Assembly: GCA_049325335.1 (NCBI GenBank)
Contig: JBMOMC010000001.1
Span: forward strand, 96,001-160,000
Source: Nitrospirota bacterium
GTDB lineage: Bacteria > Nitrospirota > Nitrospiria > 2-01-FULL-66-17
DNA: 64,000 bases
Reading direction: 5' to 3'
The notes beneath the pieces are model-generated. The model did not search any database and had not been told where the DNA came from. It saw only the letters and a program-made list of their open reading frames with translations. Made by a program: the position numbers and the translations under genes. Positions 16,008-49,079 of this stretch are shown one piece after another (position 1 is the first letter of the stretch; each line of letters opens with the position of its first letter).

Positions 16008-18050
16008 ATGTACAAGACGATTTACGTCCCCGTCGACAATTCGGATCACTCCAACCGCGCAATCGAGCTGGCGGTCAAACTCGCCCAGCAGTTCGGCGCC
16101 ACCGTGGTCGGCAGCCACGCCTACGCGGCCAAGATGCACGACAAACGCTTCAAACAGATGGAAGCGGGTTTGCCCGAGGAATATCATGACGAAAAGGAAC
16201 TCGAACGCCAACGCCGCATCCACGATTCGCTGATCACCCGCGGCCTGGAAATCATCACCGACTGTTACCTGGACGTGGTCGATCAGCAGTGCAAGAGCGC
16301 CAACGTAGGCTTTGAGCGGCGTTTTCTGGAGGGCAAGAACTTCCAGGTCCTGGTCGACGACATCAAGACCAACAAGTACGACCTGGTGGTCATGGGCGCC
16401 CTGGGCGTGGGCGCGGTGCGCGACAGCGTGATCGGCAGCGTGGTAGAGCGCACGGTGCGCCGGGTCCACGGGTCGGACTTTCTGATCATCAAGAATCCCA
16501 AGTCGATCGAACCCGACGGGCCGATCGTGGCCGCGCTCGACGGCAGCCCGCACTCCTACGGCGGTCTAATGACTGCGCTCGCCCTCGGCAAGGCCCTCAA
16601 CGCGCCGGTGGAAGCCATCTCCGCGTTCGATCCCTACTTTCATTACGCAATGTTCAACAGCATCGCCGACGTGTTGTCCGAGGAAGCCGGGCAGGTGTTC
16701 CGGTTCAAGGAACAGGAGAAACTGCACGAGGAGATTATCGACTCCGGGCTCGCCAAGATCTACCAGGCGCACCTGGACATCGGCAAACAGATCGCGGACG
16801 CCGAGGGGGTCAAACTCAAGACCACGTTGCTCGACGGCAAGGCCTTTGAGCGCTGCCTGCAATACGTGAAGAAGAACAAGCCGTGGCTCCTGATCATGGG
16901 CCGCATCGGCGTACACTCGGACGACACCATGGACATCGGGAGCAATTCCGAAAACCTGATGCGCCTGGCGGGCTGCAATATCCTGATCTCCAACCGCACC
17001 TACGTACCCCCGATCGACACCATGGCGCAGTACACCATTGCGTGGACCGAGGAAGCGGCCAAACGCATGGAAAAGGTCCCGGTGTTCGCGCGCGGCGTGG
17101 CCCGCACCGCGATCTATCGCTACGCGATCGAGAAGGGCCACACCATCATCTCCAACGAAGTCGTAGACGCGGCCATGGGCCACTTGTTGCCGCCGGACGC
17201 CGTGGCCGCCATGAAGGGGCTCGGCAAGACGTTGGACGCCGCGGGCGTGGACCGCAATAAAATGGAAGCCAGCGACGAGGTCGTCAAAGACCTGATGGGC
17301 GCGCAGGGCGCGCAGATCATGGGTCTGATGGGCGACACCGCCGCAGCCAGCGCGGGACAGAACGTGTTGAACTACGAGGAACGCCGCGAGTTGGATTACT
17401 GGGTGTGCAGCGACTGCGGGTATTTGGCTAAGGGTAGCCAGCCGGTCAAGTGCCCGATCTGCCCGGCCGACGGCGCCAAGTTCAAATTGATCGACAAGTC
17501 CCTCATCGTGGCCGCGGCCAAGGCCGAGGGCAACATCGAGGTGGAAATCGCGTACGACGACGTGGTGATCCAGTGGACCGCGGAAGCCAAAGAGCGGCTC
17601 AAGGCCGTGCCCTCCGGTTACATGCGCCGGCGCGCCAAGGCCATCATCGACAAGTCGGCGCGCAAGATGGGCCTCAAGACCATCACCACCGAATTCGCGA
17701 GCAAGGTCATCATGGAGTACGCCTCCGAAGTGAGCTGGAAGGACGAATTGCTGGCGGGCGATGCGGAAGAGAAACTTTCGGCCCCGGCGCCGGAATTCGA
17801 GTGGACTCGCGACGCCAATCAACGCATCGAGCGCGTGCCGCCTGGCTACATGCGCGACTGCACCAAGGGCATGGTCGAGACTCACGCGCGAGAAAAAGGC
17901 GTGCGCGCCATCACCCTGGAGATCTGCAACGAGGGCATTGAAAAAGCCAAGGCCGCGATGGAAGATGCCATGAAGAATCCGGCGAAGATGGAAGAGATCT
18001 TGGCGAAGTTCATGCCGAAGAAGCCGGAAACCGCGCAGCCGACGGCGTAA
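16008..18050 (+). CDS. tandem universal-stress-protein domains fused to a rubredoxin-like domain and three PCP_red-like modules
   Basis: YKTIYVPVDNS..DLVVMGALG..IGSVVE; second USP IVAALDGS..IGSNSE; CSDC..CPIC; three WTxEAxxR..VP modules; GAGGAG RBS. Confidence 0.85.
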   Translation: MYKTIYVPVDNSDHSNRAIELAVKLAQQFGATVVGSHAYAAKMHDKRFKQMEAGLPEEYHDEKELERQRRIHDSLITRGLEIITDCYLDVVDQQCKSANVGFERRFLEGKNFQVLVDDIKTNKYDLVVMGALGVGAVRDSVIGSVVERTVRRVHGSDFLIIKNPKSIEPDGPIVAALDGSPHSYGGLMTALALGKALNAPVEAISAFDPYFHYAMFNSIADVLSEEAGQVFRFKEQEKLHEEIIDSGLAKIYQAHLDIGKQIADAEGVKLKTTLLDGKAFERCLQYVKKNKPWLLIMGRIGVHSDDTMDIGSNSENLMRLAGCNILISNRTYVPPIDTMAQYTIAWTEEAAKRMEKVPVFARGVARTAIYRYAIEKGHTIISNEVVDAAMGHLLPPDAVAAMKGLGKTLDAAGVDRNKMEASDEVVKDLMGAQGAQIMGLMGDTAAASAGQNVLNYEERRELDYWVCSDCGYLAKGSQPVKCPICPADGAKFKLIDKSLIVAAAKAEGNIEVEIAYDDVVIQWTAEAKERLKAVPSGYMRRRAKAIIDKSARKMGLKTITTEFASKVIMEYASEVSWKDELLAGDAEEKLSAPAPEFEWTRDANQRIERVPPGYMRDCTKGMVETHAREKGVRAITLEICNEGIEKAKAAMEDAMKNPAKMEEILAKFMPKKPETAQPTA

Positions 18051-18079
18051 AGATCGCTATGTGATGTATTGGACGTATT

Positions 18080-18107
18080 GTAGGGGTGCACGGCCGTGCG
18101 CCCCTAC
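18080..18107. repeat. GTAG-type REP palindrome
   Basis: GTAGGGGTGCACGGCCGTGCGCCCCTAC, near-identical to 6203-6230. Confidence 0.8.
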
Positions 18108-18143
18108 GTGAGACGGCCTACCAGAGAACGAACAGCGAAATTC

Positions 18144-19526
18144 ATGACCGTAGATCTGAAACTCCCCCTATATTCGTTGCCCCAGGAAGACTTCAAACCC
18201 TTTCTGATCGCGTGGAACCTCACCAAACGCTGCAACCTGCGCTGCGCGCACTGCTATCTCTCCGCGGGCGAGCGGGACGCGGGGTCGATCGACGAGTTGA
18301 CCACGGAGGAGTGTTACCGGACCATCGACGACATAGTCCGGGTGAACCCCGCGTCGATCCTGGTGTTGACCGGCGGCGAGCCTTTGCTGCGCCGCGACAT
18401 CCCCCAGATTGCGCGCTACGCCACGTCAAAGGGCATGATGGTGGTGGTCGGCACCAACGGGACCCTGCTCACCGACGAGAAGATCAAAGAGCTCCTGGCC
18501 GCCGGCGTGATGGGCGTGTCGATTTCGGTCGATTCGCTGGACCAACACAACCACGACACGTTCCGCCGTTTGCCCGGCGCGCTCCAGGGGTCACTCGACG
18601 GCATCGCAGCGTGCCGCCGCAACGGCCTGCAGTTTCAGGTCCACACCACCGCCAGCTCGATGAATTACGCCGAGATCCCCGCGATCATGGAGTACGCCTA
18701 CAAGGCGGGCGCGCGCGTGTACAACCTGTTCTTCCTGGTGTGCACGGGCCGCGGCGAGGAGATGTCCGACATCACGCCCGAGCAATACGAGCAGGTGTTG
18801 AACTATCTCGTCGATATTCAGACCAAGTTTCCCGGCATGCTCGTGCGCTCGCGCTGTGCGCCGCACTTCAAACGCATCGCGTACGAGAAGAACCCGGAAT
18901 CCCCGATCACGAAAGCGCAAGGATACGAAGGCGGCGGATGCCTCGCTGGCACGCACTACGCGCGCATCACGCCGGAAGGGGATCTGACCCCCTGCCCGTT
19001 CATGCCGATCTCGGTGGGCAACCTGCGCGAGACCGGGTTCGACGCGCTCTGGAACGACTCCCCAGTGTTTCACCAGCTCCGCGCGCCCCGACTCAAAGGC
19101 AAGTGCGGAGATTGCGAGTACAGCGAGTTGTGCGGCGGGTGCCGTGCGCGACCGTTCGCGTCGCATGGGGATTTCTTGGACGAAGACCTGTGGTGCAACT
19201 ATACGCCCAAGGGCGGCGCGAAGGTCCTCCCGCTGGTTGAGGCCTTCGACGGCCCCCCGCCCCCATGGAGCGAAGCCGCGTTGGAACGGCTGAACCGTTT
19301 GCCGTTTTTTCTCCAAAAAATGGTCAAACAACGCGTGGAGAAGTATGCGCGCGAACAGAGCGCGGTTGTCATCACGCCGGAATTGATGGAAGCGTTGCGC
19401 AAACGCACGTTCGGCAACGAGACCCCGGTCTTCGACATGGGGCGGTTCCAGGGGTTGATGCCGGAGGACGGTTGGCCGGGCACAGACGCGGTACCCGCGC
19501 CGAGCCAGGAGATCCGCGGGCGGTGA
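18144..19526 (+). CDS. radical SAM/SPASM protein (AhbD/NirJ-like) with C-terminal PCP_red-like module
   Basis: WNLTKRCNLRCAHC, TGGEP, CAPHFKR, GCLAG..PCPF..GKCGDC..CGGCRAR..DLWC; C-terminal WSEAALERLNRLPFF. Confidence 0.88.
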   Translation: MTVDLKLPLYSLPQEDFKPFLIAWNLTKRCNLRCAHCYLSAGERDAGSIDELTTEECYRTIDDIVRVNPASILVLTGGEPLLRRDIPQIARYATSKGMMVVVGTNGTLLTDEKIKELLAAGVMGVSISVDSLDQHNHDTFRRLPGALQGSLDGIAACRRNGLQFQVHTTASSMNYAEIPAIMEYAYKAGARVYNLFFLVCTGRGEEMSDITPEQYEQVLNYLVDIQTKFPGMLVRSRCAPHFKRIAYEKNPESPITKAQGYEGGGCLAGTHYARITPEGDLTPCPFMPISVGNLRETGFDALWNDSPVFHQLRAPRLKGKCGDCEYSELCGGCRARPFASHGDFLDEDLWCNYTPKGGAKVLPLVEAFDGPPPPWSEAALERLNRLPFFLQKMVKQRVEKYAREQSAVVITPELMEALRKRTFGNETPVFDMGRFQGLMPEDGWPGTDAVPAPSQEIRGR

Positions 19527-19969
19527 TCGCGTCGGGCCAACTGTTCAAGATTCTCAACTTCTGGGTCCACTTGGTCTCCGCCTTTATTTGGATCGGCGGA
19601 GTCCTGTTTTCCAGCTTAATTCTCCTGCCCGCCGCGCAGAAGCACCTCAACAAAGACGTCCGCGGGGACTTCCTGCGTCGAGTTCACGCGCGCTTCCAAA
19701 AGATCTCGGGCGCGTTCGTGGGTCTGCTGCTCGTCACCGGGGGCATCAACATCCACTTCGCCAAACAATACCGCGGCGCGCTCACCGGCCTGTACTTCAA
19801 CGCGCTGATGCTCAAGATTCTCTTCTTTACCATTATCCTGACGTTCTATCTGTTACACCTCAAAGAACTGGGTGATAAGAAACCCATGCAGTACTTCCCC
19901 TATCAGGAAGCCACGTTGGTCCTCGGCGTGTTGATCATCCTGATGGCCGCCGTCCTTAAACACAGTTAA
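19523..19969 (+). CDS. CopD/DUF4149-like four-TM membrane protein
   Basis: HLVSAFIWIGG, LLLVTG and LMLKI motifs; GTGA overlap with the rSAM stop. Confidence 0.72.
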   Translation: MIASGQLFKILNFWVHLVSAFIWIGGVLFSSLILLPAAQKHLNKDVRGDFLRRVHARFQKISGAFVGLLLVTGGINIHFAKQYRGALTGLYFNALMLKILFFTIILTFYLLHLKELGDKKPMQYFPYQEATLVLGVLIILMAAVLKHS

Positions 19970-20078
19970 CCCGGTTCGCCCGAGTTCCACCCGCTTCCGC
20001 TGGAACAAGCGGCCCAGACCGTGTATAAAGGTTTTGATACTCCGTTTGGATTACCTTCTCTCGCGGTGAGGCATCGTC

Positions 20079-21260
20079 GTGAATAGACGCATGATCGTGA
20101 TGTTGGTCTCAACCGGCTTGGTATTGGGCGGCATTTTCGGCTTCAAGTGGTTCGGCAACAAGATGATGAACCAGTTCTTCGACAACATGCCGATGCCGCC
20201 GGTCGCGATCACGGCTACGGACGCTCAGGAGCAAACGTGGGCCGCGACCATCGAGGCGGTGGGCACGGTCACGGCGGTCAACGGTATTGCGGTGAGCGCC
20301 GAAGTCGCCGGCGTGGTCCGGTCCATCCACTTTCAGTCCGGTGATCGCGTGGCGGCCGGCGCGGTCTTGATGATGCTCGATTCCGTGGTGGACCAGGCCG
20401 AGTTGCGAACGCTCGAAGCCCAGCGGGATCTGGCCGAAGCGGATTTGGCGCGTGGGCGCGACCTGTTCGGCTCCGAGGTGATGGCCAAGTCCCAGTTCGA
20501 TCGGGTCGAGAGCGCGGCGGCGCAAGCCGCGGCTCGCGTGGAAGCGCAACGCGCGCTCATCGCCAAAAAGACCATCCGGGCGCCGTTCTCGGGCGTGCTC
20601 GGAATTCGGCGGGCAAACCTCGGACAGTACGTGAGCCCAGGCACGCCGTTGGTCACCCTCCAATCGCTCGATCCGATCTACGTGAACTTTGCGTTGCCCG
20701 AACAACGACTGGGCCTGTTGGCCGTGGGCCAGCCCGTCGCGGCCGTCGTGGACGCGTTCTCAGACGCCGCGTTCGAGGGACGCATCACCGCAATCGAGCC
20801 GCGCGTGGACGAGAACACGCGCAACTTCGACCTCCAAGCCACCTTCCGCAACGCGGACCGGCGTCTGCAACCGGGACTGTTCGCGCGTGTTCGTATTGCG
20901 TTGCCCACGTCGGAGCGTTATGTGGTCGTACCGCAAACTTCGGTCAGCTACAACCCCTACGGCAACTCGGTGTATGTGATTCAAGAAGCCGCGCACAGCC
21001 CATCAGACGCCACGAACACGAACCCGGCCGAGGGCGCGCACGCCACGCCCACCGGGCAAGGGCCGACGCTGACGGTGACGCGCCGGTTGATCAAGACCGG
21101 TCCAACCCGCGGCGACTTCGTGGCGGTGGTCGAGGGACTCAAACCCGGCGAACGCGTGGCGACGTCCGGCCTCCTCAAACTTCGCAATGACGCGGTGGTG
21201 GTGATCAACAACGCGGTGACGCCGGCCGCGAATCTCCAACCCACGCCCCCCGAAAGTTAG
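20079..21260 (+). CDS. RND efflux membrane fusion protein
   Basis: EVAGVV..F.SG, IRAPFSGVLG, LQPGLF and GLKPGERV motifs. Confidence 0.93.
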   Translation: MNRRMIVMLVSTGLVLGGIFGFKWFGNKMMNQFFDNMPMPPVAITATDAQEQTWAATIEAVGTVTAVNGIAVSAEVAGVVRSIHFQSGDRVAAGAVLMMLDSVVDQAELRTLEAQRDLAEADLARGRDLFGSEVMAKSQFDRVESAAAQAAARVEAQRALIAKKTIRAPFSGVLGIRRANLGQYVSPGTPLVTLQSLDPIYVNFALPEQRLGLLAVGQPVAAVVDAFSDAAFEGRITAIEPRVDENTRNFDLQATFRNADRRLQPGLFARVRIALPTSERYVVVPQTSVSYNPYGNSVYVIQEAAHSPSDATNTNPAEGAHATPTGQGPTLTVTRRLIKTGPTRGDFVAVVEGLKPGERVATSGLLKLRNDAVVVINNAVTPAANLQPTPPES

Positions 21261-21385
21261 ACGCCTGTCCATGAATGGTCATCTGCGGCGTTGTCGCTTC
21301 GGAATCGCTCCTCACGTACGACCCAGTACGCTCCGGGGGGATTCCTCACTCCGCCTTGCATCTGACCCATTCCTGAACAGGCGTC
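21260..21385. repeat. palindromic intergenic repeat family A, copy 2
   Basis: terminal IR GACGCCTG/CAGGCGTC; reverse-complement match to 4323-4451. Confidence 0.85.
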
Positions 21386-21419
21386 CACACACTGGTACTC
21401 GGACAGGATACTAGAGGCC

Positions 21420-24400
21420 ATGGGCTTCACGGATATCTTCATCAAGCGGCCGGTGTTGGCCGCGGTGGTCAGTTTAATGATCCTGCTACTGGGCCTGCGC
21501 GCGTGGACCGAATTGAACGTGCGCCAATACCCGGAGATGAAAAACGCCGTGGTCACGGTTGCGACCACGTTTATCGGCGCCGACTCCGAATTAATCCAGG
21601 GATTCATCACCTCGCCGCTCGAGCGCGAAATATCGAGCGCGCAAGGCATCGACTATATCCAGTCCACTAGTCTTCCCGGGGTGAGCTCGATCCAAATCTT
21701 TCTTCGCTTAGACTACGATCCGAACGAAGCCTTGACCCAAATCGCGGCGAAGGTGAACAAGGTTCGGCGCGAGCTGCCCGAAGGCAGCGAAGACCCGGTC
21801 ATCGAACTGTCCGTCGGCGAGACCATCGCCGCGATGTATTTGAGCTTTTACAGCACCATCCTCGACAACAATCAAATCACCGACTACCTGGTCCGCGTCA
21901 TCGAACCCAGGTTGTCCACGCTCCCGGGCGTGCAACGGGCGCTGATCATCGGCGATCGCACCTTTGCCATGCGGATCTGGCTCAAGCCGGAACGGCTGGC
22001 CGCGCTCAACCTCACCGCGAGCGACATCCAAACCGCGCTCCAGGCCAACAACGTGCAGGCGGCTGTGGGCGCCACCAAGGGCGCGATGGTCTCGGTGGAT
22101 CTCAAAGCCAACACCGACCTCCAGACGGCGGAGCAGTTTCGCAATCTGGTGATTCGCTCCGAGGGCGACGCGATCGTTCGTCTGGGCGACGTCGCCGACG
22201 TGGTGCTGGGCGCAGAAACCTACAACACCGCGGTCTCGTTCAACGGCCTGAGCGCCACGTTCATCGGCGTCGAAGTGGCGCCGGACGCGAACGCGCTCGA
22301 CGTGGTCGAGCGGGTACGTCACGAGTGGCCCGATATCCTGCGCCAACTGCCGCAGGGTCTGGAAGCGAATATCCCGTACGACAGCACGCGATATATTCGC
22401 AACGCCATCAACGAAGTCGTGTTCACGCTCGGCGAGGCGGTCCTGATCGTGATCGTGGTGATCTTCCTGTTCCTCGGGTCGCTGCGCTCCGTAATCATTC
22501 CCGCGGTCACGGTGCCGCTGTCGATCATCGGCGCCTTGTTCCTGATGTGGGTCATGGGTTTCTCCATCAACCTGCTGACGTTGTTGGCCATGGTGCTGGC
22601 CATCGGCATGGTGGTGGACGACGCGATCATCGTGTTGGAGAACATCCATCGCCACATCGAAGACGGCATGAAACCGTTCGACGCCGCGATCAAAGGGGCG
22701 CGCGAATTGGGCCTGCCCGTCATCGCCATGACCGTCACCCTGGTCGCGGTGTACCTGCCCATCGGCTTTATCGGCGGATTGACCGGCGCGTTGTTCGTAG
22801 AGTTCGCTTTCGCGCTCGCGGGCGCGGTGCTGCTCTCCGGCGTGATCGCGTTAACGCTCTCGCCCATGATGTGCGCCCGGCTGCTCCGCCCGCGCAACAA
22901 AGGCGGCGGGCACCGTCTGGAACTGTGGCTGGATCGCCAATTCGACCGGCTGCGGCGCGGGTATCAACAACGTCTGCACGGCGCGCTCGACGACAAACAC
23001 GTCATCGCCGTGTTCGGCGTGATCGTGCTGGCGAGCACGTATTTCTTGTACCAGACCTCGCCGCGGGAGCTGGCGCCGGAAGAGGACCAGGGTATCGTCC
23101 TCATTTTTTCGCAGAGCGACCCCTACTCCTCGCTGGACTATCTGACCCAATTCACCAACGAGTTAACCACGATCGCCAACGCCATTCCGGAAAAGGAAAA
23201 CTACTTCCTGATGAACGGCGTGGGAGGCAGCGGGTCCGCGGTCGGTACCAACACCGCGATCTCCGGCATCGTGTTCAAACCGTGGGACGAACGCGACCGC
23301 ACCACCAAGGACGTCCTACAGGAGGTCCAACAAAAGGCCGGAGAGGTCGCGGGGTTGATGAACGCGGTGTTCGCCCCGCCCCCGTTGCCCACCGGCGGCA
23401 TGGGATTCCCGGTGGAATTCGTGATCGCCAGCACCCAGCCGGTGCAAGCGTTACACGACGCCAGCAACGAGATTCTCCAGCGCGGCATGGCGAGCAAACA
23501 ATTCATCTTTATGGACACGGACCTCAAAATCGACAAACCGCAGATCCACATCGACATTGATCGCGATAAGGCCGCGTTGCTCGGCATCGACATGCGCCAA
23601 CTGGGGAGCGAACTCGCGGCCATGATGTCCGGAGGCTACGTGAACCGGTTTTCCATGGAAAGCCGCAGCTACAAGGTCATTCCGCAGGTCCAACGCACGG
23701 ACCGGCTCAACCCCGACCAACTCACCCAGTACTACACGCGCACCCGGTCCGGGGACCTGGTGCCGCTCTCCACCCTCGTGACCTTGCGCGAATCCGTGGA
23801 ACCGCAACAACTCAAACGCTTCCAACAGTTAAACGCCGTGGTCATCTCGGGCGTGCCGCGCCCCGGCGTCACATTGGGCGACGCCCTGAGCGTGCTGGAG
23901 CAAGCCGCGGCCGAGGTGCTGCCACCTGGTTACGCCGTGGACTACGCGGGCCAGTCCCGCCAGTACAAGACCGAGGGCGCGGCATTGGTGCTGACCTTCT
24001 TCTTCGCGCTGATCATCATTTACCTGGTCCTCGCCGCGCAGTTCGAGAGTTTCCGCGACCCCATCATCATGCTGGTCACGGTGCCCATGTCCATCTGCGG
24101 CGCGCTGATCTTTGTGAGCCTCGGCCTCACCACCGTGAACATCTACACCCAGGTGGGCCTGGTCACCCTCATCGGCGTGATCAGCAAACACGGCATCCTG
24201 ATCGTGGAGTTCGCCAACCGGCTCCAGGAACAGGGCCGAGCCAAACGCGAAGCTATCGAAGAAGCCGCCTCCATTCGCCTGCGCCCGGTCCTGATGACCA
24301 CCGCGGCCCTCGTGCTCGCCGTGGTCCCGTTGCTGACCGCCACCGGCCCCGGCGCCGCCGCGCGCTTTGCCATCGGCCTGGTCATCGCCACCGGCATGAC

Positions 24401-24527
24401 CATCGGCACCGCGTTCACGCTGTTCGTGGTGCCCGCGGTCTATCTGTACTTGGGAAGAGACTACGCGGCACAGCGCGCCGGAGAAACTGCTTCGGTTATG
24501 CCAACATCGGGCCGGGCAACCGCGTAG
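21420..24527 (+). CDS. RND efflux permease (AcrB/MexW-like)
   Basis: FIKRPV, VDDAIIVLENI and RLRPVLMTT motifs; 1035 aa. Confidence 0.95.
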   Translation: MGFTDIFIKRPVLAAVVSLMILLLGLRAWTELNVRQYPEMKNAVVTVATTFIGADSELIQGFITSPLEREISSAQGIDYIQSTSLPGVSSIQIFLRLDYDPNEALTQIAAKVNKVRRELPEGSEDPVIELSVGETIAAMYLSFYSTILDNNQITDYLVRVIEPRLSTLPGVQRALIIGDRTFAMRIWLKPERLAALNLTASDIQTALQANNVQAAVGATKGAMVSVDLKANTDLQTAEQFRNLVIRSEGDAIVRLGDVADVVLGAETYNTAVSFNGLSATFIGVEVAPDANALDVVERVRHEWPDILRQLPQGLEANIPYDSTRYIRNAINEVVFTLGEAVLIVIVVIFLFLGSLRSVIIPAVTVPLSIIGALFLMWVMGFSINLLTLLAMVLAIGMVVDDAIIVLENIHRHIEDGMKPFDAAIKGARELGLPVIAMTVTLVAVYLPIGFIGGLTGALFVEFAFALAGAVLLSGVIALTLSPMMCARLLRPRNKGGGHRLELWLDRQFDRLRRGYQQRLHGALDDKHVIAVFGVIVLASTYFLYQTSPRELAPEEDQGIVLIFSQSDPYSSLDYLTQFTNELTTIANAIPEKENYFLMNGVGGSGSAVGTNTAISGIVFKPWDERDRTTKDVLQEVQQKAGEVAGLMNAVFAPPPLPTGGMGFPVEFVIASTQPVQALHDASNEILQRGMASKQFIFMDTDLKIDKPQIHIDIDRDKAALLGIDMRQLGSELAAMMSGGYVNRFSMESRSYKVIPQVQRTDRLNPDQLTQYYTRTRSGDLVPLSTLVTLRESVEPQQLKRFQQLNAVVISGVPRPGVTLGDALSVLEQAAAEVLPPGYAVDYAGQSRQYKTEGAALVLTFFFALIIIYLVLAAQFESFRDPIIMLVTVPMSICGALIFVSLGLTTVNIYTQVGLVTLIGVISKHGILIVEFANRLQEQGRAKREAIEEAASIRLRPVLMTTAALVLAVVPLLTATGPGAAARFAIGLVIATGMTIGTAFTLFVVPAVYLYLGRDYAAQRAGETASVMPTSGRATA

Positions 24528-24530
24528 GCC

Positions 24531-26665: not shown

Positions 26666-27970
26666 TTAGAGCGCGAAGTCGAATGCCAACAGGACGCGCA
26701 CTTCCCGGAGATCCAATCCTCCGTCCTGCTTCGTCCGTTGCTCGGAGACCTCCGCGTGGAGGAAGACTTCATTTCGCGTGTTGATGGTGAGCGCCTTGCG
26801 CACGGCCGCCACGACCTGGTCGATATCGCCGTCGGATTTTGACACTGTAGGGTCGGGTTGCTGTGTGTTGCGGACCACGTCGTAGCGAGCGATCAGGACC
26901 AGTTCCGGCGACACGTGCCAGTTGGCCTCGACCAACCCGCCGTAAAACTTTCCGTCCTGCGCGGCGGGCTGAATGTCCGCGGTGACGGTGTCGCTGTCGA
27001 TGACGGCGCTCGGGTCGCGTCCCGCCATTCCCATGACCAGGAAATTCACGGATCGCACCGTCAGATTGAAATCGACGCCGTAGCGATAAAACGTCTTGGG
27101 ATTGCGGCCCGTTCCCGGAATCGGCTCGCCCGACAGATCATGTAGGTACGCACTGGCTTCACGGCCGAGGTAACTGAACGCGCCCACGCGTTGCCCGTGC
27201 AGGCGATACGTCACGTGACCGTAGAGATCCGGGCTGAACGGCTCTTTGTTGCCCAGCGCGGTATTATCCCCTTCCACCAGGTCGAGCGTGTACCGCAGTG
27301 AGTCGTCGGCACTGTGCCCCATGAGTTCCACCCCGGTTTGGTTCTCGCTCAGACTCATCTCCACCATGCTTCCGGCCGGTCGATGGTCGTAGATAGGATA
27401 TCCCGCGCCCAGGGTGAGGATCCGCTTCGTACTGAACGGCACATCCATCTCAAAAATCCCGGCTTTGACGTTCAGCCACGGACTCTTGTTGAGATCGTTG
27501 AAACGGATCCAAGCGGACTCCAAACTCAGCCCGGCTTCCGGCGTTCCCACATCCGCCAACACGAACACCAGGTGATAGGAGATCGAGTCCGTCAAGGTGC
27601 CGACGCTTAACACGTCCAGCCCGAAGTCCTGAAAACTTCCTGACCGGATGGTCGCATCAGGGTCCTCCAGCGTGGGCTGGTGCGTCTGGATCGTGTATTC
27701 GAATCCGACCGGGGTTCGGAACGCGATCGGGAAATACGCGCCGGGGAGGTTCACCGGGTTGTCGCGGTCGGTGCCCAGCCGGTAGCCATTGTCACGGAAC
27801 GTGCTGCCGAAATCATTGAGTTTGGGGAACGCCGCGTGGCACAACGTACATGCCGCATCGTATTTCCTGGCGAACGCCGGAATCGCTTGAGACGGCGTCG
27901 CGGTGGCCACGATGACCAGCACGGAGAGCAGACCCGCCAATACATGTATGAACGCCCGTTGTTTCGTCAT
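26666..27970 (-). CDS. Cyc2-like monoheme cytochrome c-porin fusion
   Basis: signal peptide then AIPAFARKYDAACTLCHAAFPKLNDFG..F..NGY, followed by a beta-barrel-like region ending AFDFAL; AAGGAGG RBS. Confidence 0.78.
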   Translation of the reverse strand: MTKQRAFIHVLAGLLSVLVIVATATPSQAIPAFARKYDAACTLCHAAFPKLNDFGSTFRDNGYRLGTDRDNPVNLPGAYFPIAFRTPVGFEYTIQTHQPTLEDPDATIRSGSFQDFGLDVLSVGTLTDSISYHLVFVLADVGTPEAGLSLESAWIRFNDLNKSPWLNVKAGIFEMDVPFSTKRILTLGAGYPIYDHRPAGSMVEMSLSENQTGVELMGHSADDSLRYTLDLVEGDNTALGNKEPFSPDLYGHVTYRLHGQRVGAFSYLGREASAYLHDLSGEPIPGTGRNPKTFYRYGVDFNLTVRSVNFLVMGMAGRDPSAVIDSDTVTADIQPAAQDGKFYGGLVEANWHVSPELVLIARYDVVRNTQQPDPTVSKSDGDIDQVVAAVRKALTINTRNEVFLHAEVSEQRTKQDGGLDLREVRVLLAFDFAL

Positions 27971-28181
27971 GACCGACTTGCCTCCTTGGCTCAGAAGTGC
28001 GTCATGCATTCGTCGGAACCGAGAAAAACTGTAGCAGATCTCTCGTGATCTGGCCACGACGTGAGCGGATGATTGGAAACAAATACGCTCGCGGTGATGC
28101 CCCGCGACTGTTAGACTGTTTGCTCATGTGTGCTCGGCCGGCTCAGGGAAAAAACTTCCTCCGTGGTTTCGTTAACATCGC

Positions 28182-33783: not shown

Positions 33784-35055
33784 TTAGAACGCGTGGGCGC
33801 CGTGCGCGCCGATCAAAAACTCCCACTGCAAGAACGCCGAGTGCGCGATGTCCTCGCGGCTCTGCACATCGTCCCGGTTGTACTGCACGCGCCATTTGGA
33901 ATACTCGCTGGGGTAGAACGTCAGGTTGGGCGAGACGCGCACCCGGCGCTCGCGCAGCGGATCGGTCACGTCCCCATTCTCACCCACCACGTACTCGCCA
34001 CGAAGGCCAGCCACCCATCGCGGGGTAAATCCCCACGTGACCTGCGTGTAGCCACCCCGGTCCCTGAGCTGTTCCTCCGGAAACGTCCCGTCCGCGGCGT
34101 TCTCGTACTCGCGCCGCATCAGTTCGGTCTGCCACGCCACAAACGGCCAGCCCTTGACGGTCTGCACCGGCTTCCACTTGTAGTACAAATCGATCCCGTA
34201 GATCTGCGTTCGTGCCGACTCCCCGCTGCTGTTGGGTCCGAACGCCCCGGAAACGCCGACGAGCACGGTCTGGGCGTCGCTCGGATTGAACGACGCGGCC
34301 AACCGCGGCGTGATCGCGAGATCGCCGATCCCTTCGACCCGACGCTCGATCAACGTCCGTCCGAAGAGAATCTCATCGGGCGCGTTGCGAAAGCTGAACA
34401 TGGTCTCGCCCTGGCTGTTCTGCAGCGCGATCAAGGCTTCGGCGTACACCGGGAGCGGTAACAGATACGCCACCTGCATGCCCAGTCCCCGCATCCCGTC
34501 GCCACCGAACAGGCGGCCGTTGATCAAGGGCTGATCCACAAACGCCCACGCGTGGGGATGCTGGGGATTGAGGCGACCGAACTGGGTGAAGAACTGCCCG
34601 GCTCGAAGTTGTAGATTCGCGGGCAATGCGGTCGATGTGATGTAGGCTTCTTCGACTTCGAGGAAGCTTTCCCCTTCCCGATCGATGCCGAAGATCAGAT
34701 GACCGATCGCGGCAAAGTACGGGTCCACGTTTCCGGACAGCGTCAGCTCAAGATTTTGGGCCGTGAATCCCCGCTGGTTGGGATCGTGCGCTCCGGTTTG
34801 CAGCGTCTCCAGGTCCGGCGCTGTGGACGCGCCCGCCGCAAATAGACCGTCGAGCGACATATCCGGATTGAACCGCGGGCCTGTGCCCTGTGACGTCGGC
34901 TGTTTGGCTTCCAACGCGCGCACCGCGGCCCGTGTCTCGGCCAATTCACGCTCCACGCGTTCAAGCGCCGTTTCCTCGGCGTGAGCCGCGGCGCCCGATA
35001 CGACGATGATCCCGAACCACGCCATGACGAATCGATGACACCATGCGTGCTGCAT
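33784..35055 (-). CDS. outer-membrane beta-barrel metal uptake protein
   Basis: signal peptide plus coiled coil; VDPYF, EEAY, FGRLNPQHPHAW; C-terminal IGAHGAHAF; too short for a TonB-dependent receptor. Confidence 0.75.
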   Translation of the reverse strand: MQHAWCHRFVMAWFGIIVVSGAAAHAEETALERVERELAETRAAVRALEAKQPTSQGTGPRFNPDMSLDGLFAAGASTAPDLETLQTGAHDPNQRGFTAQNLELTLSGNVDPYFAAIGHLIFGIDREGESFLEVEEAYITSTALPANLQLRAGQFFTQFGRLNPQHPHAWAFVDQPLINGRLFGGDGMRGLGMQVAYLLPLPVYAEALIALQNSQGETMFSFRNAPDEILFGRTLIERRVEGIGDLAITPRLAASFNPSDAQTVLVGVSGAFGPNSSGESARTQIYGIDLYYKWKPVQTVKGWPFVAWQTELMRREYENAADGTFPEEQLRDRGGYTQVTWGFTPRWVAGLRGEYVVGENGDVTDPLRERRVRVSPNLTFYPSEYSKWRVQYNRDDVQSREDIAHSAFLQWEFLIGAHGAHAF

Positions 35056-35075
35056 AGCTCCTCCGCACATGGAAT

Positions 35076-35501: not shown

Positions 35502-40251
<4,750 letters not shown>

Positions 40252-40253
40252 CG

Positions 40254-41636
40254 TCACTCCTCACCTGATGCGTGATCGCTCGTCCCGTGGAGAGACTCAC
40301 CCGTAAGTCCCTCCACGTCAGCCACGGCGATTCGGTAGTTGATTAAGGCCCGGAGGTGTTGCGATCGGGCGTGAAACCATGTGCGTTGCGCATCGAACAC
40401 GTCGAGCAACCCGAACTTTCCGATCCGATACCCTTCGTTCACGGCATCGAACGCGGATTGCGCTCCGGGCAGGATCCGCTCCTCAATGGCCACCGCTTCC
40501 CGCTGCGCCGCGGAGAGTGCTCGGTAGGCCTCGGCCAACGCCAGCGAAACCCGCGCGTGTTCGGCTTGTTGCTCCGCCTCCCCTTTGGCCAGCCGGTCGC
40601 GTGCCGCCTGAATGCCCGCGCCGTTGCGGTCGAAGATCGGCAACGGGATCGACAGGCCGGCCGTGAACGTCGAGTCGCCGGTGGTGTCGTATCGCCGATA
40701 CCCACCGAGTACGGTGAGGTCCGGAATCGCCCGCGCGCGCTCCAAATCCAGCGCGGCCCGTCGTTGCGCCAGGTCCGCGGTCCAGCGCGACAGCGCGGGC
40801 GATTGATCGAGACGGCCGGCCAGATCAGACAACGGAGGAATCGGCGACGCGGGACCGAGCGAGCCCTCGGCCTTCTCAAACCGCGGGACCATGCTTCCCC
40901 AGGTGGCTGCCAATCGGCCGCGCGCCGCGTCCACCTCGTTCGCGGCGCGGCCTCGTTCGATCCGCGCGGCGGATAATGCCACCTGAGCCTTGACCTCCTC
41001 GACCGCCGCGACCTTGCCTGCGCGAACCCGTGCGGAGACGATGTCCACGACGCTCTCCGCCAAACGCAACATCTCGTCCGCGAGGGCGAGTTGTTCCTGA
41101 GCACCGAGCAACTCTGCACAAGCTTGTGAAACCTGCGTGATGACCTCGATCCGTTTGCGCTCGTACTCCCATCCGGCCAGATCGCGCGCCAGGGCCGCGG
41201 CCTCGGCTCGTCTCCCCCGCTTGCCGCCCAGTTCGATCAGTTGGCTGATGGTGAGATTGGCCTGCGGCTGAAAAACAGTGTCCGCGGACGCGTTCGAGGA
41301 GCCGATGTCTTGCAGATCCGCAGTCAGTACGGGATTGGGAAGACGACCGGCTTGGATCGCGTCAGCGTCGCGCGCTCGCGCCTCCCACGAGAAGGCTTGG
41401 AGCTCGGGATTGCGCATCAACGCGAGGGCCACCGCCTGCCGAACTGTGATCGCACCGACCGGTTCTTCGAGATCGATGGGTTCCGGACGAGCGGGTGGAC
41501 CGGCCGCAAAGGCCGGTACATCGCGACCAAGGGGACGAGGACTCGGCTCCGTCGTTGCCGTTCGAGTGGCGGCACAACTCACCAGACCAACGCAAATCGT
41601 CAGAACACCCCATACGGCAATCACTGAGACAGGCAT
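40254..41636 (-). CDS. czcC: outer-membrane efflux protein (CzcC/TolC family)
   Basis: lipobox LVSC, QAGRLPNP, IELGGKR, LSIPLPIFDRN and GKFGLLDVFDAQR motifs. Confidence 0.92.
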   Translation of the reverse strand: MPVSVIAVWGVLTICVGLVSCAATRTATTEPSPRPLGRDVPAFAAGPPARPEPIDLEEPVGAITVRQAVALALMRNPELQAFSWEARARDADAIQAGRLPNPVLTADLQDIGSSNASADTVFQPQANLTISQLIELGGKRGRRAEAAALARDLAGWEYERKRIEVITQVSQACAELLGAQEQLALADEMLRLAESVVDIVSARVRAGKVAAVEEVKAQVALSAARIERGRAANEVDAARGRLAATWGSMVPRFEKAEGSLGPASPIPPLSDLAGRLDQSPALSRWTADLAQRRAALDLERARAIPDLTVLGGYRRYDTTGDSTFTAGLSIPLPIFDRNGAGIQAARDRLAKGEAEQQAEHARVSLALAEAYRALSAAQREAVAIEERILPGAQSAFDAVNEGYRIGKFGLLDVFDAQRTWFHARSQHLRALINYRIAVADVEGLTGESLHGTSDHASGEE

Positions 41637-41717
41637 ACATCCTCCGAGTTCTTCGCAAGACATGACCGGGCGTCCCTTCCGAGTATCCGGAAGAGCGGAA
41701 CGGGAAGAACCGAGGCG

Positions 41718-42191: not shown

Positions 42192-42307
42192 GCCGCTGAC
42201 TAATCTATCAGACCCGCGGTCGCTGTGCAACCGGATCGCCACTCGCATGACTCAGCTTCCCGGGATGGAACTCTCCAGCACCGTTGTCAGACACGCGCCA
42301 CCGGCGC

Positions 42308-43288: not shown

Positions 43289-43305
43289 GCTTGACCTCCC
43301 CGTCA

Positions 43306-44619: not shown

Positions 44620-44652
44620 GGTGCCCCCCAGTATCGATTGTGATTCTATGAA

Positions 44653-44679
44653 GTGTTACGAACTTAACAAACATAACAC
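44653..44679. promoter_or_regulatory. candidate NikR operator
   Basis: GTGTTA-N15-TAACAC inverted repeat in the AT-rich gap between nikR and the porin. Confidence 0.6.
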
Positions 44680-44790
44680 ATACTATATTTCGTGTCACTA
44701 TATAATTTTTTCGTGCTATCTCTTCGGAAGAAAACTACGTATAGATATTAAGGACTTAGGAATGTTGTTGGTGCGTTACAGCGACTAGGC

Positions 44791-45225
44791 TTACAGGTCT
44801 TTTCCCGTGGTCGTCATCGTAAACTTGCCGTGTTTGACGCCCTTGGTTCCGATCAGGCGATCGGCCACGTGTTTGACGTCTCGGCCACGGCCCTGGACGA
44901 CCAAAACCTCGAGGCAGTTGTGCTCGTCAAGATGGATGTGGAGGGTGGAGCGAAAGAGTTTCTGGTATTGGTGCTGAAGATCGGTCAGCGTGTCCGACAG
45001 CTCACGGACTTCGTGGTCATAGACAATAGTCACGGTGCCGATGATCTCGCGGTTCTCGTCCCATTCCTGCTCAACGAGCGCGTCGCGGATCAGATCACGG
45101 AGCGCTTCGGACCGGTTGGTATACCCCTTTTGTTCGATGACCCGGTCGAACCGGGTGAGCAGGTTCGCTTCGATCGAGACCCCGAAGCGTTGCAGTTGCC
45201 CGCCGTGCTCGGCGCTCTCATGCAC
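44791..45225 (-). CDS. nikR: nickel-responsive regulator NikR
   Basis: [38 protein letters not shown] and KGVKHGK motifs. Confidence 0.96.
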
Positions 45226-45238
45226 GGGAGCGGTCCCT

Positions 45239-45418
45239 AACCCGGGTTATTCATGAAGGTTCGTCGCGAACCCGCGCAGACGCCAGCGAACCGGGCGCTC
45301 GGAGCCGCGAAGGAGGGAGGAGTACTCTCTGCGGTACGCTGACCGACTGAGCGGCGAGACCGCCCGGTTCGCTGGCGTCTGCGCGGGTGCAGTAGAAGCG
45401 TCATGAATAATCCGGGTT
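45239..45418. repeat. 180-bp palindromic element family B (MITE-like)
   Basis: 18-bp terminal IR with 17/18 match (AACCCGGGTTATTCATGA / TCATGAATAATCCGGGTT); perfect internal 28-bp IR 45270-45297 / 45361-45388. Confidence 0.85.
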
Positions 45419-45420
45419 TA

Positions 45421-46413
45421 TCATGCGTCGGATTTGAGGTCCCCTTCGCCCTTGAGGTACTTGCGAAAGCGCGTCATCAGTTCCTCCCCTAGAACCCCGA
45501 CGTGGGGTTTCTTGGTCATGTACGCGCGGATCTCATCTAACCGACTGTCGGCCTGTTCGTTGCCCTGGAGGCGTTTGACCTCTTGTTTGGCCTTATCGAA
45601 GGCATCGAACGTCAGCTCGGTGTATCCCAACTTGCGAATCCGCATGACGGCCTTCATCATGGCCTCGTTGCGGAATTTGGTGAGCAGGTCGGACGTAATC
45701 ACCCCGGCGCCCGCCTTGCGCGCCCGCCGCTCCGCGGCTTTTTTGATCCCGCTACGCACAAAATCGGGCGACGTCTGTAACCGCGCCCAGGCCTCTTCGC
45801 TCCAGCGCACGTCGGATTGCGGCGTCTCCCACACCCGGGTCAACGCCTCCTCGGTCATCTCCGTCACGCCCAACGTGCGCGCCAAGTCCTCGGCATCGGC
45901 TTTGAGCATCTGGATCACGAACTCGGTGGCCATGGGCGGCGTGCCCTCCACCTTCTTGGCCAGCTTGGCCAATGCGCCCTCGGTCCACGACAGGGCCGAC
46001 TGCGGGTCGGCATCCTGGCCTACCCCCAGTTGCTCGACCTTTTCGAGCAGCTCGACGTTGACTTCCATGTGACCGCGCTCGCGCGCCACGTCTTCCGCGA
46101 TCCGACGGACCATGTCCTGCATGAAAGCCGGCGCAGTGGCCAATCGTTGTTTCGCGGCCTGTGTCCAGGGTAACTGCCCCTTGGCGATCTGATCCGCCGC
46201 CTCCTTGAGCCCGGCCTCGCCACCCATCCCGCCCATGGACGCATTTTTCCACTCCGCAAGCTGCTCGGCGGTGATCACCCCAATACCCAATTCTCGTGCT
46301 TTTTTCTCCGCGAGCTTCTTGACCATGCCGCGTAGGAAGATTGGCGCACGTTGGAGGCTCTCCAGCCCGGATTCGCTCCAACGGATTTCTGATACGGGGG
46401 GCGTCACAGACAT
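45421..46413 (-). CDS. protein with four PCP_red-like modules
   Basis: WSESGLESLQRAPIF, WTQAAKQRLATAPAF, WTEGALAKL and WSEEAWARLQTSPDFVR; GAGGGA RBS. Confidence 0.8.
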   Translation of the reverse strand: MSVTPPVSEIRWSESGLESLQRAPIFLRGMVKKLAEKKARELGIGVITAEQLAEWKNASMGGMGGEAGLKEAADQIAKGQLPWTQAAKQRLATAPAFMQDMVRRIAEDVARERGHMEVNVELLEKVEQLGVGQDADPQSALSWTEGALAKLAKKVEGTPPMATEFVIQMLKADAEDLARTLGVTEMTEEALTRVWETPQSDVRWSEEAWARLQTSPDFVRSGIKKAAERRARKAGAGVITSDLLTKFRNEAMMKAVMRIRKLGYTELTFDAFDKAKQEVKRLQGNEQADSRLDEIRAYMTKKPHVGVLGEELMTRFRKYLKGEGDLKSDA

Positions 46414-46426
46414 AATCCCTCGAGCG

Positions 46427-47188
46427 TTACGGCCGTGCGGCTCGCGGACCGAATACCGCACGGGTCAGTCCGTCCCAGAACAATGAGCGCCACGCCAGCG
46501 ATTTCATCGCGCCGTTCCGAATCATGGTACGCCCTTCCGCGGTGTCCGCGTGGCGGGCAATCAATTGGTTGAACACCTCGGCATGCTCCACGTCTTCCTC
46601 TACGTGCAGCGTGAAGTACTCGATCTGTTGGTCGGTCAACGAGGTATTACGGCGAATGCCCACGATCAGCGACTTGAACATGGTGGGAATCGAAAACTCA
46701 TGACCCGGACCCACCGCGCCGAGCCCCACGCGAAAGTCCTGGTCCCGCGTCAACGCTAAGTGGCCCCTGATGTACGCATCGGTCTCAGGCAACGGCCGCG
46801 TCCGCCCCCACTCCTCGTCGCGCACGCCCATCGCGGCCAGAAAGTCCCGATACAAATGGACATGGCTGCGAAAGATCGTGGCCTGGCCCACCGACGCGTC
46901 GCGTCCACTCACCGCCCCGAATTCATCGTCAAACACGTGCCGGAACAACTCCGCGGCGTCATGGTCAGGAATCTTGGGCAGCAAGTTGGTCATGTAGGTG
47001 GTGAACACCCGGACCAACTGATAGTGCTGAAGCCCGAACGCCTTGACCTGCTCTATCGAAAGCGGCTCAGACGCAAAGCGCGCGAGGAACGGATGATTAA
47101 CGGCTTCGTGCGCGAGAATCTCGGCTTCCAGCGACTTGATGAAGTTGGTTGCGTCGACAGACGGTTTACCCGACGAAACGATGCCCAT
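46427..47188 (-). CDS. heme-oxygenase-like diiron redox enzyme (CADD/PqqC/TenA superfamily)
   Basis: NHPFL, DDEFG..HVHLY, GHEF and YFTLHVEEDVEH ligand pattern. Confidence 0.82.
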   Translation of the reverse strand: MGIVSSGKPSVDATNFIKSLEAEILAHEAVNHPFLARFASEPLSIEQVKAFGLQHYQLVRVFTTYMTNLLPKIPDHDAAELFRHVFDDEFGAVSGRDASVGQATIFRSHVHLYRDFLAAMGVRDEEWGRTRPLPETDAYIRGHLALTRDQDFRVGLGAVGPGHEFSIPTMFKSLIVGIRRNTSLTDQQIEYFTLHVEEDVEHAEVFNQLIARHADTAEGRTMIRNGAMKSLAWRSLFWDGLTRAVFGPRAARP

Positions 47189-47245
47189 TGAGGATGAACC
47201 TAGATTGCTCTTGTCTTCTCTTTAAAACCAAGCGCTACGCGCTTG

Positions 47246-47363
47246 GAGCCCGTTAAGGTTGGTCGCAAGGCGGAGCGAGCGCCCGCACCGCAGCGTACTG
47301 GGTCGTACATGAGGAGTTGATGCGCAGCGGCAACGCCGCAGATGGCCGCTCATGGACGGGCTC
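47246..47363. repeat. palindromic intergenic repeat family A, copy 3
   Basis: terminal IR GAGCCCGT/ACGGGCTC; shared GCAAGGCGGAG, GCGTACTGGGTCGTAC and CAACGCCGCAGATGG. Confidence 0.82.
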
Positions 47364-48071
47364 TCACCCGCCCATGAATTTGGCGAACGCGGTTTTGGCC
47401 TGCTCCATCACCTCAACTGTCACCTCAGTCCGTCCCGCCTCCCGCGCCATCCGCTCGATCTCTTTCTTCGCCATCGGCCGGATGAAAAACGGAATGTTCT
47501 CCAAACGCTGCTTGGCCTCCGGCGACCACCCGAACTCCTCGCCGCCGGACTTATACCGATCCAGCATCGCCTGAGTGACGAAGGTCTGACCCGTGGACTT
47601 GGCGTAGGCCTCGACTTCCATTTTCACGGTCGGCCGCACGAAGTCCGGAATCTTAGCCAACCGATCCAACGCCTCGGCCGACCACTCCAGTCCGGCGGTC
47701 TCGGTGGACCCCGTGCCCATGCCCATGCCCGCCACCATCGACGAGAAGGGGCAACTCCCGCCGCCGGTCGACTCGGACGTGGCCGGTTGCGCCGTGGCCG
47801 CGCCCGCCGCCGCAACCATCCCCGGCATCGGACACTCGGCCGCGTCCTTTAGCGTACCTCGCGTCAATTCGAACGCCTCCGGCGCCGTGGTGCGCCCGCC
47901 GATCTTCACGCCCAGGGCCTGCACCATCTGCGTTTCACCGGGATTGGTCACCATCGAAAATCGGGCGCTGCACTTGGGACAGAGAAACTCCACCCCCAAC
48001 GACCCTTCGCCAGGCTTCTCGACCTTCTGAAACAACATAAACGCTTCACAATTGAGGCACACGAACTTCAT
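47364..48071 (-). CDS. Zn-ribbon protein with two PCP_red-like modules
   Basis: CLNC..CPKC; ECPM and SCPF; WSAEALDRLAKIPDFVR and WSPEAKQRLENIPFFIR; AGGAG RBS. Confidence 0.8.
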   Translation of the reverse strand: MKFVCLNCEAFMLFQKVEKPGEGSLGVEFLCPKCSARFSMVTNPGETQMVQALGVKIGGRTTAPEAFELTRGTLKDAAECPMPGMVAAAGAATAQPATSESTGGGSCPFSSMVAGMGMGTGSTETAGLEWSAEALDRLAKIPDFVRPTVKMEVEAYAKSTGQTFVTQAMLDRYKSGGEEFGWSPEAKQRLENIPFFIRPMAKKEIERMAREAGRTEVTVEVMEQAKTAFAKFMGG

Positions 48072-48088
48072 TACATCTCTCCTCGCTC

Positions 48089-48111
48089 GGGCGTATGCCA
48101 TCCGCCCCTAC
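48089..48111. repeat. degenerate GTAG-type REP
   Basis: minus strand GTAGGGGCGGATGGCATACGCCC. Confidence 0.6.
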
Positions 48112-48155
48112 AGAACATTGAATACCGGCAAACCCGAAGATTCGTGGACAGGCGC

Positions 48156-49079
48156 CTATAACCGTTCCGCAACGATCTTCCGAAAGCTCAAGCAGTCCAC
48201 GATATGTTGCGCGATCTCGTCGAATCGTACGGCGATCGGATTCCCGGACTCGATCGCCGGGCGGCCGCCGTCACAGCGCGCGCTCAACTCCCGGTCGAAT
48301 GGCACTTTGCCGAGCACGGGCACGTCCAGGTCGGCAGCCATCGCGTCCACGCTGCCGGTAAACAGGTCGTTCTCGTGCCCGCAGCGCTCACAATGGTACC
48401 CGCTCATATTCTCGATGAAACCGATCACCGGGATGCCTACGTCGCGGGCGTAGACCACGGACTTTCTCACCACGTCGGTGGTGACCTCGGACGGCGTCGT
48501 GATAATGACCGCGCCGTCCAACTCAGGGATAAAGTTCGCCAACGCGGGCGGCTTGTCAGCGGCCGCGCCGGGGGGAAGGTCCGCCAGCAACAGGTCCAGT
48601 TCCCCCCACACGATGTCAGCCAGGAATTCGCGGATCACGTTCATCTCCAACATGCCTAGCCACACCGGGCTCAGTTCCATCGAGCCTTTCCAGCGAACCG
48701 GGTTGTGTTCTTCCAGGAAGAAATCCATGGACGCCACGCGAATCCCCAACGGCCCGACTGGAGGAGCCGCGCCATCCGGCGTCATCTCGAACCGCCGGCC
48801 CGACATCCCCAACATCTTGGGCACGCACGGGCCGTTCAAATCCACGTCCACCACGCCCACGCGTTCGCCACGCCGCGCGAACGCCAATGCGAGGTTGACC
48901 GTGGACATGCTCTTTCCCACGCCGCCTTTGCCGCTCATGACCACGATCTTTCGCTTGATCCGGCCCATCCGCGTCTTGACCTGCAGCGTCTGGTCCACGA
49001 TCTGGCGCATGACCTGCGCGTCATCGGGAAATTGCAGTTTATTGAGGATGGTTTTGAGGTCAGATGTGGCCATATTCAT
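48156..49079 (-). CDS. Mrp/NBP35 family P-loop ATPase (Fe-S carrier-like)
   Basis: SGKGGVGKS, DVDLNGP, DLPPG and ENMSGYHCERC motifs. Confidence 0.9.
   Translation of the reverse strand: MNMATSDLKTILNKLQFPDDAQVMRQIVDQTLQVKTRMGRIKRKIVVMSGKGGVGKSMSTVNLALAFARRGERVGVVDVDLNGPCVPKMLGMSGRRFEMTPDGAAPPVGPLGIRVASMDFFLEEHNPVRWKGSMELSPVWLGMLEMNVIREFLADIVWGELDLLLADLPPGAAADKPPALANFIPELDGAVIITTPSEVTTDVVRKSVVYARDVGIPVIGFIENMSGYHCERCGHENDLFTGSVDAMAADLDVPVLGKVPFDRELSARCDGGRPAIESGNPIAVRFDEIAQHIVDCLSFRKIVAERL

Follow-up and report, generated by a model that had tools for sequence, protein, structure and literature searches.

PCP_red-tagged genes of Nitrospirota form a conserved system that co-occurs with the OR-N oxidase and probably acts in haem maturation

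Ten copies of a short module resembling PCP_red (PF08369), the C-terminal domain of the dark protochlorophyllide reductase (DPOR) subunit ChlB/BchB, are spread over four proteins encoded at positions 16008..49079 of a 64,000-nt stretch of DNA from a Nitrospirota bacterium. Do these genes form one system and, if so, which enzyme does it serve? An earlier note, made from the sequence, had proposed that the modules assemble a complex for maturing or repairing a metal cofactor under stress or metal control. Here, the window is the whole stretch, and all window coordinates are counted from its first letter. Labels denote genomes (G, with G000 the source genome), loci (L), proteins (P), contigs (C) and families (f); we infer that f2 and f3 are Nitrospira-like and f13 Leptospirillum-like. 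On balance, we lean towards the view that the tagged genes are a single conserved module, found together with the OR-N oxidase, and that this module matures the haem cofactor of the oxidase.

The gene set and the OR-N oxidase

The set lies in two convergent groups with 25.45 kb between them. On the plus strand are a tandem universal stress protein (USP) fused to PCP_red modules (16008..18050), a radical SAM/SPASM enzyme with a C-terminal PCP_red that is the likely catalytic core (18144..19526), and a small CopD/HemJ-like membrane protein (19523..19969) whose gene overlaps the radical SAM stop by 4 nt. On the minus strand are a dedicated Mrp/NBP35-type ATPase paralogue (48156..49079), a Zn-ribbon-like PCP_red protein (47364..48071), a haem-oxygenase-like diiron protein (46427..47188) and PCP4, with four PCP_red modules and a conserved C-terminal domain (45421..46413). 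The arrangement is as the earlier note described it: two converging groups about 25 kb apart, with CopD-like, diiron, Mrp, NikR and transporter genes all in the window. A DUF420 membrane protein (49622..50344, minus strand), encoded just beyond the end of 16008..49079, goes with the set; its orthologues adjoin CydA-like genes in G055 and G078.

We searched the same 151 Nitrospirota genomes with every query. The oxidase query was the CydA-like protein of the Nitrospira-type oxidase operon, and radical SAM orthologues were defined by our own threshold (best E ≤ 4e-89), the untagged AhbD tier beginning at 5e-87. The CydA-like protein was found in 50 genomes, the radical SAM orthologue tier in 51, the USP core in 51, and USP and/or radical SAM in 52. 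Both oxidase and USP/radical SAM were found in 50 of the 151 genomes, the oxidase alone in none, the set alone in two and neither in 99. The two set-alone genomes are fragmented (G001, 470 contigs; G017, 120 contigs). Outside f1-f3, the oxidase is present in 17 of 118 genomes, each of which also has the set; the two fall in the same genomes in f9 (3/33), f8 (1/7) and f20 (1/2). USP was found in 70 of 74 Nitrospinota genomes, and among the remaining four, G183 and G208 keep the oxidase and a radical SAM orthologue while G220 and G221 lack both.

Parts of the set also adjoin the oxidase gene. Same-strand runs with the CydA-like gene include USP-radical SAM (G116, G032 and G148), Mrp-Zn-ribbon (G054), a PCP4-type gene (G007), and the DUF420 gene with a two-module PCP_red gene (G078); in G038 and G025, set parts lie 4-10 kb from the CydA-like gene. 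Taken together, the profile and the operons make it very probable that the gene set is tied to the OR-N (bd-like) oxidase.

The two groups of the window are one conserved system: in other genomes they lie side by side, point the same way or are fused. PCP4 and USP share a locus in 8 of 23 Nitrospirota-type loci (L013-L034 and L074), and many of the remaining loci are cut off by the end of a contig. The gene order USP-radical SAM-PCP4-CopD-like occurs on one strand in L024 and L025. Radical SAM-PCP4 fusions are found in L020, G017, G054 and G038, USP carries a PCP4 tail in G001, G011 and G020, and P0169 joins a diiron domain to three PCP_red modules. Elsewhere the set is split into three loci (G055, G078 and G141) or, in five Nitrospina genomes, into five. 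Full-length PCP4 is present in about 41 genomes; for the Zn-ribbon domain the count is 39, and for the Mrp paralogue about 28. In f2, seven genomes lack the Mrp paralogue, and it is these seven whose Zn-ribbon is divergent; the loss and the divergence may be a single event.

The radical SAM enzyme and routes to haem

The radical SAM enzyme scored 333 bits against the AhbD family (TIGR04545) and 327 bits against NirJ2 (TIGR04055), both with cut-offs of 500, and 195 bits against NirJ (TIGR04051, cut-off 515). Peptide-maturase SPASM families gave at most 154 bits. The cysteine motif of Methanosarcina barkeri AhbD, CX3CX2C followed by the SPASM pattern CX20-33CX17CX36-37CX2CX5CX2CX17-35C (PMC10452713), is complete in the window enzyme (Cys 30/34/37 and eight SPASM cysteines at 238-351) and is present, with slightly relaxed spacing, in 33 of 34 tagged sequences. 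The enzyme further shares with AhbD a C-A-P-H segment and is ~37% identical to an AhbD encoded next to ahbA/B genes. It differs from AhbD in the LVCTGRG segment, with Cys where Pro stands (26 of 34 tagged sequences), in its PCP_red tail (19266..19403), in coexisting with AhbD and in tracking OR-N. In a quick tree of 34 rows, rooted on AhbC/NirJ-like sequences and made without bootstrap or a characterised reference after 18 long or near-duplicate rows were dropped, 22 tagged rows (support 93) are sister to eight AhbD rows (98). On sequence grounds, we place the enzyme in a sister clade of the haem synthase AhbD, outside the AhbD clade. Proteins above the TIGR04545 cut-off occur in 31 of the 151 genomes.

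The source genome encodes a HemF-HemY-HemH route to haem b (hemE-hemH-hemY, a second hemY and hemF). We found no ChdC match, no siroheme decarboxylase-type AhbA/B match and no HemN above cut-off in it; its sole PF06778 match is short and lacks the ChdC motif. Given that ChdC and above-cut-off HemN were not found, its haem route other than any through the radical SAM enzyme needs O2. In other carriers, the set coexists with ChdC (31 of 31 f2/f3 genomes), with HemN (G017, G038 and G054) or with above-cut-off AhbD (G001, G020, G032, G073 and G116). Since carriers have HemF, ChdC, HemN or AhbD, it is the oxidase that the set follows, not the route to haem b. We also considered the radical SAM enzyme as the source genome's missing coprohaem decarboxylase, and dropped this given HemF there and HemN in the three genomes just named. 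The source genome, which belongs to Nitrospiria and is 99% complete, encodes an OR-N-type oxidase and a NirK-like protein; no NxrA-like match was found in it.

Several neighbours and fusions link the set to tetrapyrroles. HemY follows the radical SAM gene in G017 and G054, in the place held by the CopD-like gene in the window. An HmuY-like gene follows it in f10, and an HmuY-like neighbour is also present in G151. The YPF-x-K and MDEH motifs are significant in ChdC. PCP_red is fused to ChdC with both motifs intact in Nitrospina G151 and G153, and to a degenerate ChdC with neither motif, possibly a pseudo-enzyme, in f13 genomes that have HemN (fusions at L114:8658-9617, L118:8545-9492, L140:5035-6060 and L141:6334-7377). 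In G016, PCP_red is fused to an AhbD-clade protein.

PCP_red modules, partner proteins and neighbouring genes

The resemblance to PCP_red noted earlier holds for all four proteins. PF08369 (cut-off 32.5 bits) scored 118 bits in the USP fusion (three stretches), 56 in the radical SAM enzyme (one), 136 in PCP4 (three) and 118 in the Zn-ribbon protein (two), and nine of the ten modules were scored singly. The modules lie at 17043..17180, 17574..17711 and 17802..17939 in the USP fusion, at 46243..46380, 46030..46167, 45835..45987 and 45667..45804 in PCP4, and at 47547..47684 and 47391..47528 in the Zn-ribbon protein. The third module of PCP4 (residues 143-193) is degenerate and below Pfam detection. 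It carries an insertion of 8 residues, shares 23-40% identity with the other nine and, against a profile of the ten copies in which it is included, reaches 53 bits, which confirms the count of ten. Pairwise identity among the ten is 23-48%, with W1 and A28 invariant and no conserved His, Met or Cys. The ten-copy profile found nothing further at E < 0.1 in 36,310 six-frame open reading frames or their shuffles, and a whole-genome PF08369 search gave nine matches, all within the four genes.

The best Protein Data Bank (PDB) matches of the profile were Nostoc Asr4154 (2L09) and the ChlB/BchB C-termini. DPOR B-subunit profiles gave 72-87 bits against cut-offs of 490-509, the match being limited to the last ~50 residues of ChlB/BchB. 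The whole-genome search found no further PF08369 carrier and no full-length DPOR B subunit with the domain, in line with the earlier statement that DPOR catalytic genes are absent from the window. The accessible text of PMC12022308 yielded nothing on the BchB tail. In broad PCP_red surveys, which list multi-copy proteins first so that the 110 of 150 matches scanned do not sample single-copy fusion partners, proteins have up to six repeats. The module also occurs alone (2L09).

The USP fusion, a candidate haem carrier or scaffold, comprises the tandem USP, one PCP_red module, a rubredoxin-like CxxC/CxxC domain and two further modules. Six histidines (H37, H44, H72, H212, H240 and H303) are invariant in 33 sequences. 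A structural model (predicted local distance difference test score, pLDDT, 84) has a tandem-USP fold with helical insertions. The fold matches the tandem USPs Rv2623, TTHA0350 and UspE (E 1e-15), from which the window protein differs in its greater length, its helical insertions, its six invariant histidines and its PCP_red and rubredoxin-like domains. Its relatives, judged from the best 80 of 495 matches, are from Nitrospirota and Nitrospinota; an Atlas search returned generic USP clusters only.

Residues W14, H16 and K98 are invariant in the CopD/HemJ-like protein. The window copy scores 25.5 bits against the CopD Pfam cut-off of 32.1, and its similarity to HemJ is weak; among 14 members, 13 match CopD and six match HemJ at E 0.05 or better. 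Haem ligation in HemJ is by His and Lys. HemJ is a b-type haem protein (PMC13564367).

The diiron protein (BesC/CADD-like by PDB matches) scores 97 bits against PF14518 (cut-off 28.9) and 71 against the CADD equivalog (cut-off 200), and its Glu/His metal-ligand positions are present in alignments read by eye. The gene adjoins the set in L028, L031 and L033; its matches are only 24-29% identical in G055 and G078 and none was found in three other genomes, a patchy distribution that suggests an accessory part.

The Mrp paralogue (PF10609), a candidate Fe-S carrier for the radical SAM enzyme, shares with Mrp/ApbC carriers the GKGGVGKS deviant Walker A motif and a C-terminal CxxC. It differs from them in lacking the N-terminal FeS_assembly_P domain, in having an insertion and in being a second paralogue paired with the Zn-ribbon gene, which it directly precedes; it scores 168 bits against the ApbC equivalog cut-off of 348 and forms a distinct tier in the homologue search. 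The Zn-ribbon protein, by Pfam and alignment, consists of a CxxC/CxxC domain, a Cys-Pro linker and two PCP_red modules. The linker motif G-x-C-P-F is conserved in two-module Zn-ribbon proteins, and we take it to resemble Cys-Pro haem-regulatory motifs. Next to DUF420, a ResA/TlpA-like thioredoxin (50436..51593, minus strand) is of uncertain membership; it occurs near the set in L016, L031, L033 and L218.

Other genes accompany the set in relatives. Genes for a CbbQ/NorQ AAA ATPase, its large VWA partner and a small cytochrome c are often found ahead of USP (L016, L021, L023, L031, L033 and L218); their homologues in the source genome lie elsewhere (C40 and C44). A B12-type radical SAM gene and a UbiE-like gene precede USP in 63 of 83 Nitrospira-type loci (e.g. 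L095:15031-17594) and are likewise elsewhere in the source genome. A PNPOx-like protein, so called from Atlas features and without a Pfam match, follows the radical SAM gene in G130, G076 and G096 (L164:5260-5934, L166:9887-10648 and L167:9559-10290) and is fused to USP in P0125; it was not found in the source genome.

Between the two groups, the window encodes two RND systems, one of metal type (35502-41663, TIGR00914) and one general (20079-24527), and two secreted or outer-membrane proteins (26666-28057 and 33784-35070) that no Pfam family matches above its cut-off. The first of the latter has an N-terminal CxxCH and a layout like that of a protein in the OR-N operons of G032 and G073. An inverted repeat, GTGTTA-N15-TAACAC, lies in an AT-rich stretch (44620-44800, minus strand) between the nikR and porin-ZnuA genes, upstream of the oprB-like porin, and is a candidate NikR operator. 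Flagellin with fliD and fliS (60929-62470) is unrelated to the set.

Interpretation and comparison with known systems

How might the set act? It is possible, though we put it forward tentatively, that OR-N uses an undescribed haem derivative, which the radical SAM enzyme of the AhbD-sister clade would make and a PCP_red metabolon would pass on, with USP as haem chaperone. In the haem-maturation reading that we favour, the radical SAM enzyme would rework a tetrapyrrole propionate side chain, as AhbD and NirJ do, with its Fe-S clusters loaded by the Mrp ATPase and its Zn-ribbon partner. Oxidation or holding of the intermediate would fall to the CopD/HemJ-like protein or, where HemY takes its position, to HemY. 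Delivery to the oxidase, with hand-over at the membrane, would be the task of the His-rich USP, with DUF420 assisting, and the PCP_red repeats would dock the parts together. One OR-N subunit is reported to have putative haem b and copper sites (PMC8115632, PMC5029188), so the CopD-like and DUF420 proteins may have a copper role.

Several observations count against haem maturation for OR-N as the role of the set. Kinship makes the genomes non-independent, and 33 of the 50 concordant genomes are from three related families. The radical SAM gene was not found in G225 and G226, two of five further metagenome-assembled genomes with USP and oxidase, for which completeness was not given. The source genome's CydA-like gene is on a different contig (C2), and the OR-N label of the CydA-like query is one that we infer. 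Because the Mrp paralogue, Zn-ribbon, PCP4, diiron and CopD-like genes are each absent from some oxidase-bearing genomes or loci, the core is limited to USP and radical SAM. Moreover, haem b by itself suffices for activity of archaeal CydAA' (bioRxiv 2021.01.16.426971), which means that the bd superfamily does not require a special haem.

Expression bears on several of the alternatives. Rows of the Nitrospira marina proteome (supplement of PMC8115632) were assigned to the set by annotation, length and adjacent ids, an inferred match, and the column was read as log2 change under O2 limitation. The 699-aa USP changed by -0.01 (97-132 spectra), the 328- and 257-aa PCP proteins by 0.00 and -0.02, the 460-aa radical SAM enzyme by -0.66 and the 306-aa ATPase by -1.04; the most abundant bd-like subunit changed by -0.13. 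None of these rows was flagged; an increase was flagged for four other USPs.

The radical SAM enzyme could instead be a second haem-b synthase, an AhbD isoenzyme forming an O2-independent branch and joined to OR-N through shared islands or lifestyle. AhbD is its closest family, its SPASM motif is full, HemY adjoins it in G017 and G054, and the source genome's other route needs O2; it is also known that the coproporphyrin route can employ AhbD where other Ahb genes are absent (PMC13564367). Yet its clade is separate from AhbD, it is retained beside above-cut-off AhbD in five genomes and beside HemN in three, it was not found in the 99 genomes without OR-N, and it did not rise at low O2 in N. 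marina, all of which make a second synthase unlikely. Less likely still is action on the oxidase protein itself, either inserting haem, as the radical SAM insertase HemW does for NarI (PMC10114771), or modifying a residue, as SPASM maturases do. Such a role would fit the same profile and operons, and many of the SPASM families matched are peptide maturases, but those scored far below the roughly 330 bits of AhbD and NirJ2, and the porphyrinogen-oxidase-type neighbours suggest a small-molecule pathway.

As for the module taken by itself, we doubt that PCP_red is a cap or carrier in direct contact with tetrapyrrole and not a docking tag. Its catalytic partners (ChlB, ChdC, the AhbD-clade protein and the window radical SAM enzyme) are all known or predicted tetrapyrrole handlers; the module itself has no conserved His, Met or Cys, and it occurs alone, in up to six repeats and on a degenerate ChdC. 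It is very improbable that the set is a repair system under metal or stress control, with NikR and the transporters among its parts, or that it matures nitrite oxidoreductase (NXR). The porin-ZnuA pair and NikR do follow PCP4 in the window, as NicO and CopCD do in L023, but the genes between the two groups differ among relatives and NikR adjoins PCP4 in just three places: the window, its congener G098 and L014. We rejected NikR and the transporters as members, as the earlier note had them, because they are not conserved beside PCP4. Its metal or stress control also fared poorly, as like-sized USP and PCP proteins of N. marina were not raised under O2 limitation while other USPs were. An NxrA-like gene ends the USP-radical SAM-oxidase run in G148; however, the NxrA-like query, which matched 31 genomes, found nothing in G000 or G098 and did match G069 and G101, both without the set, and NXR was rejected as client. 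NXR is often unassembled, which weakens the absences.

What survives of the cofactor-maturation proposal is the haem link and the single, apparently undescribed system; the client, which it had not named, is given by profile and operons as the OR-N oxidase. Most likely, the set is a conserved OR-N accessory module for haem maturation, apparently new to the literature. In the literature searched, the set is undescribed and no such module is described for a cytochrome bd-superfamily enzyme; most subscription papers were outside the search, and the supplement on OR-N classification, with operon context, might mention the genes. Most Nitrospirales and Nitrospinota are proposed to have OR-N as their terminal oxidase, and neither its subunit composition nor its function has been confirmed by experiment (PMC10839748, PMC12342949). 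As a match to the oxidase's distribution, the gene set names factors that active expression of OR-N in a laboratory host would probably need. An unusual cofactor step is predicted from it, and PCP_red gains a first role beyond chlorophyll synthesis that can be put to the test.

Among known systems, the module is like the PCP_red of ChlB/BchB and Asr4154 (PDB 2L09, 2KRU and 2YNM) by Pfam and PDB sequence search. In contrast to DPOR, ten copies are here spread over four non-photosynthetic proteins, with no catalytic DPOR subunit. CtaA, CtaB and CtaM are cofactor and assembly factors dedicated to haem-copper oxidases. The haem d1 pathway, nirJ/nirDLGHFN (PMC7242693, PMC10114771), is likewise an enzyme-specific tetrapyrrole module tied to one respiratory enzyme. 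The set resembles the nirJ and Cta systems in its tie to one respiratory enzyme and in the presence of DUF420. Its parts differ from theirs, and NirDL/AhbAB are absent here.

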